A stretch of 50,379 bases of DNA, taken from contig PUKW01000349.1 of the NCBI GenBank assembly GCA_003550665.1, forward strand, positions 1-50,379, written 5' to 3'. The notes beneath the pieces were generated by a model that saw only the letters and a program-made list of their open reading frames with translations, had not been told where the DNA came from and did not search any database. The stretch comes from Paracoccaceae bacterium (GTDB lineage Bacteria; Pseudomonadota; Alphaproteobacteria; Rhodobacterales; Rhodobacteraceae). Shown here piece by piece: positions 11,027-37,182 of this stretch. The translations under genes and the position numbers were made by a program. Every line of letters begins with the position of its first letter. Position 1 is the first letter of the stretch.

Positions 11027-11479
11027 GTGAGCACCGAAACCGACCTGATCAAGCTCTATTCGGGCCGCATCCTCGAGCTTGCGGCCGACATTCCGCATGC
11101 CGAGCGGCTCGCGGCCCCGATGGCCAGCGCCAAGCGCCGCTCGCCGCTGTGCGGCTCGACGGTGACGGCGGATGTCACGCTGCGCGACGGCCGCGTCGCG
11201 GAATTCGGCCAGGAGGTGAAGGCCTGCGCGCTCGGGCAGGCGGCGGCGGCGGTGCTCGGTGCGAATATCATCGGGCGCGACCGTTCAGCGATCGCACGGG
11301 CGCGTGATGACCTGCACGCGATGCTCAAGGAGGGCGGCGATGCCCCGGCCCCGCCCTTCGACGGGCTCGAGGTGCTGCTGCCGGCGCGCGACTACAAGAA
11401 TCGCCACGCCTCGATCATGCTCGCCTTCGACGCGACGCTCGAAGCGATCGACGAGGCGGCCAAGGCCGACTGCGCCTGA
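11027..11479 (+). CDS. NifU/IscU-like Fe-S scaffold family protein (alphaproteobacterial type)
   Basis: GTG start; KLYSGRILELA, SPLCGS, KACALGQA, RHASIML. Confidence 0.85.
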   Translation: MSTETDLIKLYSGRILELAADIPHAERLAAPMASAKRRSPLCGSTVTADVTLRDGRVAEFGQEVKACALGQAAAAVLGANIIGRDRSAIARARDDLHAMLKEGGDAPAPPFDGLEVLLPARDYKNRHASIMLAFDATLEAIDEAAKADCA

Positions 11480-11496
11480 ACCGACGGATTGTACTG

Positions 11497-11528
11497 AAAA
11501 GGCCGCCGCACCGGGTCGGCGCGGCGGC
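11497..11528 (-). terminator. Rho-independent terminator for the minus-strand small-ORF transcript
   Basis: Minus strand reads GCCGCCGC-loop-GCGGCGGC-CTTTT (plus strand: AAAA at 11497-11500, arms at 11502-11509 and 11521-11528). Confidence 0.7.
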
Positions 11529-11618
11529 AAGTGGCGTGTCTGAATGTCGGACGGGATGCGCGCGGGACAGGGGCGCATCCCGTGGCGGCGCAACGCCGCC
11601 GTCAGACCGCTGGGCAGA
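11497..11618 (-). ncRNA. Structured 3' UTR, candidate 3'-derived small RNA
   Basis: Hairpins GGCGGCG/CGCCGCC (11584-11600) and ACGGGATGCGC/GCGCATCCCGT (11551-11583, C-rich loop on the minus strand), enclosed by GTCTGA/TCAGAC (11538-11543, 11602-11607), then the terminator. Confidence 0.4.
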
Positions 11619-11741
11619 TCAGAACAGAAGCGGAAGGTGCAGTCCGGCCCAGAGCAGGACCGCAAGCGAGGTCGCGCCGATTGCGTCCTGCAGGAGTGTG
11701 GGCCGCGAACGCGCAATAACGCAGGTTAGTTCGTCGAGCAT
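11619..11741 (-). CDS. 40-aa small hydrophobic (membrane) protein, putatively SOS-regulated; not in the ORF track
   Basis: ATG at 11741 preceded by GGAAGG. Translation MLDELTCVIARSRPTLLQDAIGATSLAVLLWAGLHLPLLF*, with a C-terminal hydrophobic helix. It has its own upstream operator region and downstream terminator. Confidence 0.8.
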   Translation of the reverse strand: MLDELTCVIARSRPTLLQDAIGATSLAVLLWAGLHLPLLF

Positions 11742-11762: not shown

Positions 11763-11825
11763 GTTGTTATTTTGTTCTCATATTTCGCCGCGCCGATCAA
11801 GAACTTTTTAAGAACTTACGAGAAC
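11763..11825 (-). promoter_or_regulatory. Alphaproteobacterial LexA (SOS) boxes overlapping a putative promoter
   Basis: GAAC-TTTTTAA-GAAC (11801-11815) is a perfect GAAC-N7-GAAC, i.e. GTTC-N7-GTTC on the minus strand. An extra GAAC lies at 11822-11825 and GTTG-N7-GTTC at 11763-11777. A minus-strand TTGATC (-35-like) abuts the perfect box. Confidence 0.8.
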
Positions 11826-11833
11826 AAACGAGA

Positions 11834-13924
11834 TCACCCCACACGCAGAAGGCGAATTGCCTTGTCGCGCTCCATCAGCCAGAACAGCACCCGCGCGGCC
11901 GCACCGCGCTCGGAGGCGAGCCTGGGGTCGCTTGCGAGCAGGGCGCGCGCATCGCTCTGCGCGAGCGCCATCAGCCCGGTCTGTCGTTCGAGATCGGCCA
12001 CGCGAAACCGCGGCAGCCCCGATTGCGCCGTGCCCATCAGATCCCCGGCGCCGCGAATCGCGAGATCCTCCTCGGCGATGCGAAAGCCGTCCTCGGTTTC
12101 GCGCAGGATCTGCAGGCGCCGCCGGGCCGACTCCGACAGCGGAGGCGCATAAAGCAGCAGGCAGGTCGACTCGGCCGTGCCGCGCCCGACCCGCCCGCGA
12201 AGCTGATGCAGCTGCGCAAGGCCAAAACTCTCGGCCCGCTCGATGACCATGATCGTCGCATTGGGCACATTGACGCCGACCTCGATCACCGTCGTGGCCA
12301 CGAGCACGCCGGTCTCGCCCGCATCGAAGCGTGCCATCGCCGCGTCCTTCTGCGCCGCCGGCATCTGGCCGTGCACCAGATCGACGACGCCCTCGCCGAG
12401 CGCCGCGCGCAGATGCCGAAACCGCGTCTCCGCCGAGGTCAGATCGACACTCTCGCTCTCCTCCACGAGCGGGCAGACCCAGTACGCCTGGCGCCCGGCG
12501 GCGAGCGCGTCGCGCAGATGCGCGACCACCTCCTCGAGCCGCGCCGCCGAAACCAGCGCCGTGCGGATCGGCCGGCGGCCGGGCGGCTTCTCGTCGAGCT
12601 GCGAGACATCCATGTCGCCATACTGCGCCAGCGCGAGGCTGCGCGGGATCGGCGTCGCCGTCATCACGAGCACATCCGCCGCCGCCCCCTTGGCGCCGAG
12701 TTCCATGCGCTGCGCCACCCCGAAACGGTGCTGCTCGTCCACGATCGCGAGGCGCAGATCGGCGAAGGTCACGTCGCGCTGAAAGAGGGAATGGGTGCCG
12801 ACGAGGATCTGCATGGCCCCGGAGGCGAGCGCCTCCAGCTTGGCGGCGCGCGCGGCGCCCTTGTCTTCGCCGGTCAGCAGGTCGAGGCGCACCCCGGCCG
12901 CGTCGGCGAGCGGCGCGAGGCTGTCGTAATGCTGCCGCGCGAGAAGTCCGGTGGGCGCCATGAGCGCGCCCTGCCCGCCCGATTCGACCGCGATCAGCAA
13001 CGCCATCAGCGCCACGAGCGTCTTGCCTGCGCCGACATCGCCCTGCAGCAGCCGGCTCATCCGGGTTCCGGCGGCCATGTCGGCGCTGATCTCTGCGATC
13101 GTGCGCTCCTGCGCGGCGGTAAGAGTAAAATCGAGCGCGTCGAGCACCTTGCGTTGCAGCGCGCCGGTCCCGCGCACGGCCCGCCCGCGCTGTCGGCGCT
13201 GCGCGGCGCGGGCTAGCGCCATGGCGAGCTGATGGGCGAAAAGCTCGTCATAGGCCAGCCGCCGCCGCGCCGGGGCATCGGGCGACAGCGCGGCCATGTC
13301 CTCGGGCGCATGCCCCGCCTTGAGCGCCGCACGCCAGCAGGGCCAGCCCTCGCGCGCCATGAGCGCAGGGTCGATCCATTCCGCCAGGTCCGGCGCGCGG
13401 GCGAGCGCGGCCGCCGCGGCCTTGTGCATCACCCGCTGCGTGACGCCCTCGGTGAGCGGATAGACCGGCTCGAAGCCCGGCAGATCACCGGCCTCCTCGG
13501 GCGGCAGGATATGATCGGGATGCACCATCTGGGCGACGCCGTCGAACAGCTCGAGCCGCCCGGAAACCAGCCGCCGGTGCCCCGTCGGGAGCTGCTCCTG
13601 CAGCCAGGCACCCCGGGCATGGAAAAACACGAGCTCGAAATCGACTTCGGCGTCGGAAACCTGCACGCGATGAGGCCGGCCCTTGGACGCGGCCGGCAGG
13701 TGGCGGCGCACCGCGACTTCGACGGTGACGACGCAGGGCGGCGTGACCTCGCGGATCGTGGCGCGGCGGCTGCGGTCGATCCCCGAATGCGGTAGCGTGA
13801 AGAGCAGATCGCGCGGCGTGGCGATATCGAGCCCGCCAAGGCGCTGCGCCGTGCGCGCACCGATGCCGGGCAGCGTGTCGAGCCCGGCAAAGAGCGCGAA
13901 CAGGATCTCGGGCCGCCCCGCCAC
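11834..13924 (-). CDS. recG: ATP-dependent DNA helicase RecG
   Basis: RRRLAYDEL, LLQGDVGAGKT, DEQHRFG, MTATPIPRSL, QLHQLRGRVGRG, DGFRIAEEDL. Confidence 0.98.
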   Translation of the reverse strand: MAGRPEILFALFAGLDTLPGIGARTAQRLGGLDIATPRDLLFTLPHSGIDRSRRATIREVTPPCVVTVEVAVRRHLPAASKGRPHRVQVSDAEVDFELVFFHARGAWLQEQLPTGHRRLVSGRLELFDGVAQMVHPDHILPPEEAGDLPGFEPVYPLTEGVTQRVMHKAAAAALARAPDLAEWIDPALMAREGWPCWRAALKAGHAPEDMAALSPDAPARRRLAYDELFAHQLAMALARAAQRRQRGRAVRGTGALQRKVLDALDFTLTAAQERTIAEISADMAAGTRMSRLLQGDVGAGKTLVALMALLIAVESGGQGALMAPTGLLARQHYDSLAPLADAAGVRLDLLTGEDKGAARAAKLEALASGAMQILVGTHSLFQRDVTFADLRLAIVDEQHRFGVAQRMELGAKGAAADVLVMTATPIPRSLALAQYGDMDVSQLDEKPPGRRPIRTALVSAARLEEVVAHLRDALAAGRQAYWVCPLVEESESVDLTSAETRFRHLRAALGEGVVDLVHGQMPAAQKDAAMARFDAGETGVLVATTVIEVGVNVPNATIMVIERAESFGLAQLHQLRGRVGRGTAESTCLLLYAPPLSESARRRLQILRETEDGFRIAEEDLAIRGAGDLMGTAQSGLPRFRVADLERQTGLMALAQSDARALLASDPRLASERGAAARVLFWLMERDKAIRLLRVG

Positions 13925-36096: not shown

Positions 36097-37182
36097 ATGC
36101 TGAGCTTCGTGATCCGGCGCCTGGCGACGCTGCTTGTGACGGCGCTGTGCCTGACCTTCCTGGTGTTCCTGCTCACCAACATGCAGCCGCGGCTCGAGAC
36201 CCTCGCCAAGACGCAGGGCTCGGCGCGCATGTCGGATGCGGAGGTGCAGAGCTGGCTGGTGCGCGAGGGTTTTGACCGCCCAATCATCGAGCGCTACGGC
36301 GAATGGCTCGGCGTGGTGCCCGGCTGGACCCGCGAGCAGACCGACGGGACGATGCGCGGGCGCTGCATCGACCGCGTCGCCGACCCCGCCGAGGCCGACA
36401 CCCGTTGCGGCGTCCTGCAGGGCTACTGGGGCAGCTCGACGCGCTTTCAGGCCGAGGTGGGCGACGTGATCGCGGCGCGGCTCGGGGCCACGGGCATGCT
36501 GATGCTGTGGGTGGTGATCGTGATGGTGCCCTCGGCGCTGGCGGTCGGGGTGCTTGCGGGGATGCGCGAGGGCTCGCGCACCGACCGCTCGCTCTCGACG
36601 GTGTCGATCGTGTCCGCGGCGACGCCTGAGTATGTCTCGGGGGTGATCTTCATCGCGCTCTTTGCCTCCTCGACCTTCGGGATCTCGCCGCTTCTGCGCG
36701 AATGGGGGTTGATGGAGGCCAACATCCTGTTTCTGGGCAATGCGCGCAGCGCCATGGACCAGATCACCTTCTGGAACTTCGCCCTGCCGGTGATGACCAT
36801 CGCGTTTTACGGCATGGGTTACATCGCGCGCATGACCCGCGCCTCGATGGCCGAGGTGATGACGCAGCAATACATCCGCACCGCGCGGCTCAAGGGGGTG
36901 AGCTTTCCCGCCGTCGTGCTCAGGCACGCGCTGCGCAATGCGCTGATCGCGCCCTTCACGGTGATCATGCTGCAGTTTCCCTGGCTTCTCAACGGGGTGG
37001 TGATTGTGGAGGTGCTGTTCAGCTATCCGGGCTTTGGCTGGGCGCTCGTCGAGGGGGCGAGCAACAACGACATCGAGCTTCTGCTCGCCTGCTCGGTGGT
37101 CGCGGTCGTGGTGGTGCTCATCACGCAGCTCATCTCGGATATCGGCTATGTCTATCTCAATCCGCGCATCCGGATCAGCTGA
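36097..37182 (+). CDS. ABC transporter permease (DppB/OppB-like)
   Basis: RMTRASMAEVM...YIRTARLKG EAA loop, HALRNA, VEVLFSYPG, LNPRIR. Confidence 0.94.
   Translation: MLSFVIRRLATLLVTALCLTFLVFLLTNMQPRLETLAKTQGSARMSDAEVQSWLVREGFDRPIIERYGEWLGVVPGWTREQTDGTMRGRCIDRVADPAEADTRCGVLQGYWGSSTRFQAEVGDVIAARLGATGMLMLWVVIVMVPSALAVGVLAGMREGSRTDRSLSTVSIVSAATPEYVSGVIFIALFASSTFGISPLLREWGLMEANILFLGNARSAMDQITFWNFALPVMTIAFYGMGYIARMTRASMAEVMTQQYIRTARLKGVSFPAVVLRHALRNALIAPFTVIMLQFPWLLNGVVIVEVLFSYPGFGWALVEGASNNDIELLLACSVVAVVVVLITQLISDIGYVYLNPRIRIS

Follow-up and report, generated by a model that had tools for sequence, protein, structure and literature searches.

The window, which is the whole 50,379-nucleotide stretch of Paracoccaceae DNA that was analysed, contains a short gene for a 40-amino-acid membrane peptide between recG and a convergent sufU/iscU-like gene, and directly 3' of its stop codon begins a highly structured element that ends in an intrinsic terminator (Table 1). 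Beyond recG lie ligA, a ctrA-like gene and a DUF1153 gene. The two perfect hairpins, the GTCTGA/TCAGAC helix and the U-tailed terminator that a first-pass annotation had picked out were all recovered by direct reading of the sequence. In two related loci, L388 (G035) and L392 (G125), the sufU-like match holds an in-frame TGA, which indicates either a broken gene or recoding.

Table 1. Features of the peptide-RNA locus and its neighbours (positions in the window).
Feature	Position	Strand	Remark
sufU/iscU-like gene, convergent	11030..11479	plus	TIGR01994 below cut-off; adjacent in 25 of the 29 best loci, in which adjacency was counted
Intrinsic terminator	11497..11528	minus	stem 11528-11502, CUUUU tail
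CACUU linker	11533-11529	minus	just ahead of terminator
Multi-stem body	11534..11610	minus	closed by helix P1
Helix P1	GCG-GUCUGA 11610-11602 with UCAGAC-A-CGC 11543-11534	minus	
Closing-helix letters as first described	GTCTGA 11538-11543, TCAGAC 11602-11607		
11-bp hairpin	11551-11561/11573-11583	minus	loop CCCUGUCCCGC at 11572-11562
CUGUCCC loop seed	11570-11564	minus	inside the 11-bp hairpin (11551..11583)
7-bp hairpin	11584-11590/11594-11600	minus	exact sequence in 1 of 105 homologues, the source copy only
5' single-stranded seed UCUGCCC	11612..11618	minus	family consensus UUUCUGCCUG
40-aa peptide gene	11619..11741	minus	variable N-half, one hydrophobic helix
Second LexA-type box GAAC-N7-CAAC	11763..11777	minus	near the likely (unmapped) transcription start
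LexA (alphaproteobacterial SOS) box GTTC-N7-GTTC	11801..11815	minus	overlaps sigma70-like -35 TTGATC, 11800-11795
Third GTTC half-site	11811-11825	minus	upstream of the main box, at a spacing of 6 nt and not 7
recG, upstream neighbour	11834..13924	minus	Pfam RecG domains; adjacent in 26 of the same 29 loci

Judged from its motifs, the peptide gene is predicted to sit under two LexA boxes, in keeping with the SOS control first supposed for it. The main box agrees with the GTTC-N7-GTTC form of the alphaproteobacterial LexA box given in the available portion of PMC6473078. As one exact match is present in the window and 0.78 would be expected by chance, the weight of this box rests on its position and its conservation. 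It is found in 105 of 105 homologues, most of which were fetched by a pattern containing that very box, and the second box recurs as GAAC-N7-[CGT]AAC in 103 of the 105, its second half being no part of the search pattern. The third half-site, with the same 6-nt spacing, is also seen in many homologous promoters. Elsewhere in the source genome, the GTTC-N7-GTTC motif lies upstream of the lexA-like gene, of an imuB-like gene and of a gene (G000:C158, minus strand, near 13058 in strand coordinates) that we take from its N-terminus to be rpoH-like.

The peptide follows the consensus TLxxDxxGxxALxVxLxxxLxLP and is exactly 40 residues long in 74 of the 105 homologues, all of which contain the hydrophobic segment. 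Identity by codon position across this set (0.50/0.65/0.38) carries a coding signature. The peptide has no match in Pfam or NCBIfam, its named homologues among the matches listed are all "hypothetical" or "uncharacterized", and an ESM Atlas search returned unnamed hypothetical clusters only. An HMM profile built from 50 peptides matches 273 of 300 Rhodobacteraceae genomes. The DNA search matches 158 of the 300, mostly at the promoter, and the promoter pattern adds at least 120 further loci; those with a stated genus or family belong to the Rhodobacteraceae/Paracoccaceae, bar one MAG labelled Abyssibacter, while several are classified to class or phylum only. No convincing peptide match was found in 149 genomes of other families, five of which gave weak matches (E 3e-4 to 6e-3) with no LexA box nearby. 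In the class-wide profile search, the tally of which counts G330 (flagged unpublished) as a non-match, both family genomes in the set matched strongly.

The minimum free energy (MFE) fold of the minus strand reproduces the three-way junction proposed at first, with the closing helix lengthened by GCG:CGC across a bulged A. Its z-score is -5.06, with 0 of 200 shuffles folding equally well, and stays at -5.0 when the terminator is taken off. Folding alone does not assign the strand, since the plus strand also folds (z -4.21). Across the homologues the MFE of the peptide strand is the lower one in 34 of 105, so the strand is assigned from the U-tail, the promoter and where the seeds lie; in the source copy only the minus strand has the U-tailed terminator. 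One copy of the stretch exists in its own 3.1-Mb genome, where its sole strong match is itself and the next has an E-value of 0.0028 over 54 nt, which excludes the multi-copy repeat that had been named as a possible refutation. An Rfam search had also been recommended; with the Rfam 15 covariance models at the gathering threshold no family matches the locus, which gave four chance-level matches of 10-15 bits, and none of 20 named homologous loci matches at E<=0.5, so membership of an Rfam family is rejected for these loci. The only Rfam match in the window is to the Ruegeria Cis52 sRNA (141 bits, 36759-36937, minus strand); it lies antisense inside a predicted ORF (36097-37182), and its conservation may reflect the coding gene.

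Relatives of the element were drawn from 150 loci (L009-L158), in which 110 distinct UTRs reached a terminator; removal of five with a false terminator or a misassigned ORF gave a set of 105. When their terminators are left out, z falls below -2 in 67 of the 105 bodies (median -2.5). Using anchors chosen from sequence only, the arms of the closing helix pair better with their own partner than across species in 70 of 81 cases, and so does the stem flanking CUGUCCC in 49 of 66, set against 31 of 66 (null) for a mismatched negative control. Twenty-five long forms, chosen by hand, were aligned on sequence alone with MAFFT. From this alignment RNAalifold retrieves the closing helix, in which five of six pairs have changed on both sides and 96.7% of cells are able to pair; slid controls pair in 24-60%, and 0 of 500 shuffles reach the covariation score of this helix, although relatedness among the sequences inflates covariation counts. 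On 29 short forms the same method recovered the terminator alone because the interior did not align. The upper stem of the terminator carries compensatory changes. Its base, CCGCCGC/GCGGCGG, occurs in 3 of 341 terminator-like hairpins of the source genome and, as such or in two close variants, in 93 of the 105 homologues, a figure that is partly selected, the UTRs having been delimited by a similar 3' arm. Conserved structure in relatives, which the first-pass annotation had made the test of its proposal, is thus borne out, and this is almost certainly a real conserved RNA structure. The junction geometry it had described is less general: the number of internal hairpins ranges from one to seven (mode three, two to four in 85 of 105), which means that the three-way count is not the conserved feature, and the 7-bp hairpin belongs to the source copy. 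Even if the targets predicted below are wrong, a covarying RNA family absent from Rfam would remain.

What does recur, as far as the aligned sequences allow it to be drawn, is a predicted plan of stop codon, U-rich stretch with a seed, closing helix, one to seven (mostly two to four) hairpins with C-rich loops, linker and terminator. CUGCC[UC] is found in 100 of the 105 UTRs. The longer CUGCCUG occurs in 80 of 105 and in 2 of 95 control stretches taken behind the terminator, and CUGUCCC in 75 of 105 and in 0 of 95. Between two and eight seed copies are carried by 103 of the 105 RNAs. The seeds are predicted to be exposed, with unpaired probabilities of 0.79-0.82 for CUGCCU and 0.73 for CUGUCCC, against 0.47 for words of the same composition. 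Departures from the plan include a minimal UTR of 60 nt in Falsirhodobacter (L146), a Pseudorhodobacter MAG (L157) with the peptide and no RNA behind it, two Frigidibacter loci (L014/L044) in which the RNA is displaced by about 200 nt from the stop codon, and two Paracoccus loci (L126, L151) with shortened, divergent peptides and UTRs.

The C-rich loops had initially been thought able to pair with Shine-Dalgarno sequences. That idea survives insofar as single-stranded motifs of the RNA are complementary to ribosome-binding regions; it had missed the most conserved seed, CUGCCU(G), which follows directly on the stop codon, and had named no targets. A home-made caller gave 2719 genes in the source genome, 109 of which carry seed complements near the start, and ftsW, which has both complements in tandem, stood out among these. 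The choice of ftsW was thus post hoc, and the pattern AGGC[AG]G was defined after the ftsW and ftsZ leaders had been seen. Orthologous leaders were then scored for this pattern at -30..-3. It is present in 28 of 29 family ftsZ leaders (ftsZ was first included as a control), as CAGGC[AG]G in 26 of them, and canonical AGGAG/GGAGG in 0 of 29. The pattern is also found in 24 of 30 ftsW, 8 of 19 ddl and 17 of 20 clpP leaders, the last from two separate sets (5/5 and 12/15; loci G000:C164:14882-15517, L414-L418 and L449-L477). Comparison leaders carry it far less often (ftsA 3/20, ftsL 0/28, ftsQ 0/19, ftsI 1/29, rsmH 0/27, mraY 0/12, murF 0/10, murB 1/20, lpxC 0/19, sufU 1/24, hisI 1/24), as do the leaders of the source genome at large (71/2605). 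A murD row (7/18) was set aside because the query was a fragment with no true start. Seven further core genes, including clpP and nrdJ, were chosen for having the motif in the source genome; nrdJ keeps it in 2 of 5, and typA, ntrC, metG, ptsP and a gene resembling an NADH-dehydrogenase subunit (0/5 each) were rejected as targets. So was ftsL, whose site is confined to the source genome. Among genomes outside the family, the 39 with the best ftsZ matches were selected; in these the motif is found in 0 of 35 ftsZ leaders (GGAG in 35/35), 4 of 38 ftsW, 3 of 38 ddl and 0 of 14 clpP leaders, a comparison of inside with outside the family that amounts to one evolutionary transition. Behind murD, family ftsW (L180-L209) is preceded by a separate non-coding leader, in which a small hairpin of the GACCCGG-AAA-CGGGC type is conserved just ahead of the GAGGCAG site; this suggests an internal promoter in the dcw cluster.

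Pairing was scored with a custom script for accessibility-corrected duplexes, against a background of 150 leaders of the source genome. When the RNA of each genome is matched with its own leaders, the median percentiles are 0.10 for ftsZ, 0.12 for ftsW and 0.16 for ddl, and 0.54-0.76 for nine control genes. Shuffling the RNA body raises the medians to 0.39, 0.38 and 0.28, respectively (80 background leaders). The top 5% is reached by 7 of 27 ftsZ and 8 of 28 ftsW pairs only, and the seeds are short (7-10 bp). The source copy carries CUGCCC and not CUGCCU. Of the source genome's 2719 leaders 1478 were computed, and in this set ddl ranks 20th, ftsW 57th, clpP 131st and ftsZ 158th; the sites at which the copy pairs best with ftsZ and clpP differ from the conserved motif. 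For ftsW an 8-bp match is predicted between the seed in the loop of the 11-bp hairpin and positions -13..-6 of the source genome's gene. By the motif counts and these ranks the RNA is complementary to the ftsZ ribosome-binding site at the level of the family, and only weakly so in the source copy. The 3' end of 16S rRNA was not found in the source assembly.

We consider it somewhat more probable than otherwise (roughly 0.55) that the locus encodes an SOS-induced, 3'-UTR-derived sRNA with multiple seeds, predicted to repress translation of ftsZ, ftsW and clpP and so to pause division. That the RNA acts in trans, whatever its partners, is considerably better supported and appears likely. This reading builds on what was observed: the sequence itself, the conservation of structure, the LexA-type boxes, the family distribution, the complementarity and the conservation of the leader sites. 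DNA damage would lead to LexA cleavage and to derepression of one transcript for peptide and RNA, and the active RNA would be either the whole transcript or a 3' product released by RNase E, which would cut the U-rich stretch that follows the stop codon. Assistance may come from an Hfq-like protein, for which a gene is present. Translation of ftsZ, ftsW and clpP would fall as the exposed CUGCCU/CUGUCCC seeds bind their AGGC[AG]G ribosome-binding sites; the repeated seeds could act on the GGCAG/GGCGG words that recur in the ftsW leader and on the CAGGCGGA site of ftsZ, and the G in the seed would choose AGGC[AG]G leaders over ordinary AGGAGG sites. The membrane peptide might conceivably add a further, SidA-like brake at the protein level. 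A conserved peptide together with a conserved structured 3' RNA, as the dual output suggested at first sight would have it, is borne out by the 273 of 300 genomes and the 105 UTRs, and the earlier interpretation as a whole is partly supported.

No settled account of how division is arrested after DNA damage in roseobacters and the relatives of Rhodobacter was found in the literature searched, and SulA scored over the cut-off in 0 of 61 family genomes (E. coli was positive). The locus is a candidate division brake made of peptide and RNA in about nine of ten genera sampled, some of them from lineages that have laboratory strains. If the reading is correct, it would be an alphaproteobacterial counterpart of DinR that arose independently and is conserved throughout the family, and it would explain why ftsZ in this family is without the GGAG site found in all 35 of the other alphaproteobacterial ftsZ leaders. 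More tentatively, and with the odds against it, the Rhodobacteraceae may have replaced SulA by a two-output SOS checkpoint, in which the leaders of ftsZ, ftsW and clpP keep a private AGGC[AG]G address that the RNA reads, shutting down division and ClpP proteolysis together and sparing genes with AGGAGG sites.

The closest known relative in mechanism is DinR of Klebsiella pneumoniae, an sRNA from the 3' end of a LexA-controlled small-protein gene that occludes the ftsZ ribosome-binding site (PMC10907235, as far as its available text goes). The mechanism is the one proposed for the Rhodobacteraceae RNA, proven for DinR and predicted here. According to the same text, DinR comes from dinI, which encodes a soluble RecA modulator of 83 residues, and has a seed restricted to Klebsiella. 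In the present locus the host is an unrelated membrane peptide of 40 residues, the RNA occurs throughout the family and repeats its seeds, further targets are predicted in ftsW and clpP, and SulA was not found. Identity with DinR itself is rejected, the host peptide being hydrophobic, without a Pfam or NCBIfam match and not dinI.

Among alphaproteobacterial RNAs, the Cuckoo RNAs (CcsR1-4) have a variable number of hairpins and stems and a repeated C-rich loop motif, CCUCCUCCC (PMC4615179, available portion). The present family resembles that description in its two to four internal hairpins in 85 of 105 members, its varying and covarying stems and its repeated loop motif, and differs from it in having CCUCCU in only 3 of 105, the motifs CUGCCU/CUGUCCC in its place, a long-range closing helix and LexA boxes. 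StsR and UpsM of Rhodobacter sphaeroides exert sRNA control over dcw genes including ftsW (PMC8266604), which is dcw-gene control in the same family of bacteria as the LexA-box RNA. They differ, in the sections available, in being driven by RpoHI/HII in stationary phase, and UpsM lies upstream of mraZ and binds ftsW/mraY in mid-CDS; neither LexA nor SOS is mentioned in that paper's main text. UdsC, UdsB, UdsD, UdsH and SorX are 3'-UTR-derived sRNAs of R. sphaeroides (PMC9779115, PMC8625941, in part) that share the 3'-UTR origin, often behind a small hypothetical gene, and the terminator end. The host genes named there are not beside recG or sufU, unlike ours, and UdsC is RpoHII-dependent. UdsC itself is rejected as the same RNA: its published primers and probe, in the portions seen, mismatch by eye, its host is RSP_7527, and our family carries the complement of GAGGCAG and not the word. 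No entry in the available part of the R. sphaeroides sRNA table is named as lying beside recG or sufU, its unnamed entries being unmapped, and a motif search of the accessible P. denitrificans supplement (PMC5107571), a weak test in which mostly DNA-letter terms met an RNA-letter table, gave one unrelated match. No description of the locus was found in the portion of the literature searched, in which the R. sphaeroides and R. pomeroyi sRNA tables hold unmapped unnamed entries (also PMC6238624). A family-wide SOS locus of peptide plus RNA with predicted division-gene targets has thus apparently gone undescribed so far, and a prior listing of the RNA as an unnamed sRNA is possible.

Against this literature some points of general background may be set. 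CcsR1-4 originate behind RSP_6037. SidA of Caulobacter and TisB of the E. coli TisB/IstR-1 pair are small membrane peptides under LexA control. The likeness of the present peptide to them is one of LexA box, small size and membrane character, and the peptide differs in having no family match, no convincing homologue outside the Rhodobacteraceae and no antitoxin gene found.

The rival that shares most with the preferred reading keeps the SOS-induced trans-acting RNA and gives it other partners: a sponge for sRNAs carrying GAGGCAG (UdsC-like), a protein that binds C-rich loops, or other mRNA targets, with the ftsZ, ftsW and clpP sites kept for another regulator or for tuning of translation. The two to eight seed copies in nearly all members do recall a sponge. 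In the available parts of PMC8625941 and PMC9779115, UdsC and UdsG carry GAGGCAG and the UdsD probe implies CUGCCUC, the two words that this RNA and its predicted target sites also carry, so that other regulators, or a protein, may keep the target-side motif. Furthermore, the pairing energies with ftsZ, ftsW and clpP are modest, and the target test covered about 20 orthologue groups and not the whole genome. UdsC as a family-wide sponge partner is nevertheless rejected, its 5' 14-mer being unconserved in the family (among the matches listed for 151 genomes two were exact, and the others were scattered and had one mismatch), and the leaders with a family-wide complement are of the kind expected of an SOS regulator. 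We regard this alternative as rather unlikely. Less likely still is action in cis, in which the peptide would be the sole effector and the structure, like that of type I toxin mRNAs, would govern the stability, decay timing or translation of the peptide mRNA. Wherever the RNA is found it is attached to the peptide gene, and 3' exonucleases could be held up by the terminator and the strong closing helix; a small hydrophobic peptide under LexA control is also reminiscent of TisB and DinQ. But pairing with the peptide's ribosome-binding site is weaker for its own UTR than for foreign ones (0.05 vs 0.12, n=101), on which ground fold-back onto that site is rejected and the control of the peptide in cis that had been considered at the outset is not supported. 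Accessibility of the site is 0.34 with the UTR and 0.34 without it, a stability element has no need of conserved exposed loop sequences, and in some genomes (L157, G114) the peptide persists with the RNA reduced or missing. With respect to type I toxin-antitoxin features, then, the small hydrophobic peptide is present and sequestration of its ribosome-binding site by the 3' region of its own mRNA is not seen in these 101 cases.

It had also been suggested that the element is antisense and antitoxin-like. A functional RNA on the plus strand, for example from sufU read-through, would then be a type I antitoxin for the peptide, and the convergent sufU-like gene does end near the terminator, with a spacer of 106-334 nt in most measured loci and a plus strand that folds as well. 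This proposal fared badly. No plus-strand promoter or terminator was found in a sigma70 consensus scan, which also misses the peptide's own promoter; the C-rich seeds and the U-tail are on the peptide strand, the latter in all 105 by definition of the set; and sufU is non-adjacent in 4 of 29 loci that still carry the element. We consider an antisense function very improbable. The remaining possibility, an ordinary terminator with chance hairpins upstream, would find some comfort in the high GC content and in the one hairpin that is unique to the source copy, yet it is largely refuted, and retains hardly any probability, now that about 100 diverse loci show covariation and conserved motifs.

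The preferred reading of a trans-acting RNA with division-gene targets can further be compared with the 30 family genomes with a weak or absent peptide match, which were read by eye. Thirteen have a divergent peptide and RNA, and their ftsZ leaders carry CAGGCGG in nine cases and pairing-compatible variants in four. In six the peptide is there and the RNA reduced or missing; two of these (G114, G221) keep CAGGCGG at ftsZ. In G066 the RNA is minimal and the ftsZ site absent. Five are without the locus behind recG; the ftsZ start is certain in four of them, none of which has the motif. Another six were not classifiable. As judged from these leaders, the distribution fits co-occurrence of RNA and site, with few independent events. 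Two loci of genomes without the element, L390 (G023) and L376 (G261), have in common a structured-looking non-coding stretch convergent to sufU, which may resemble 6S RNA.
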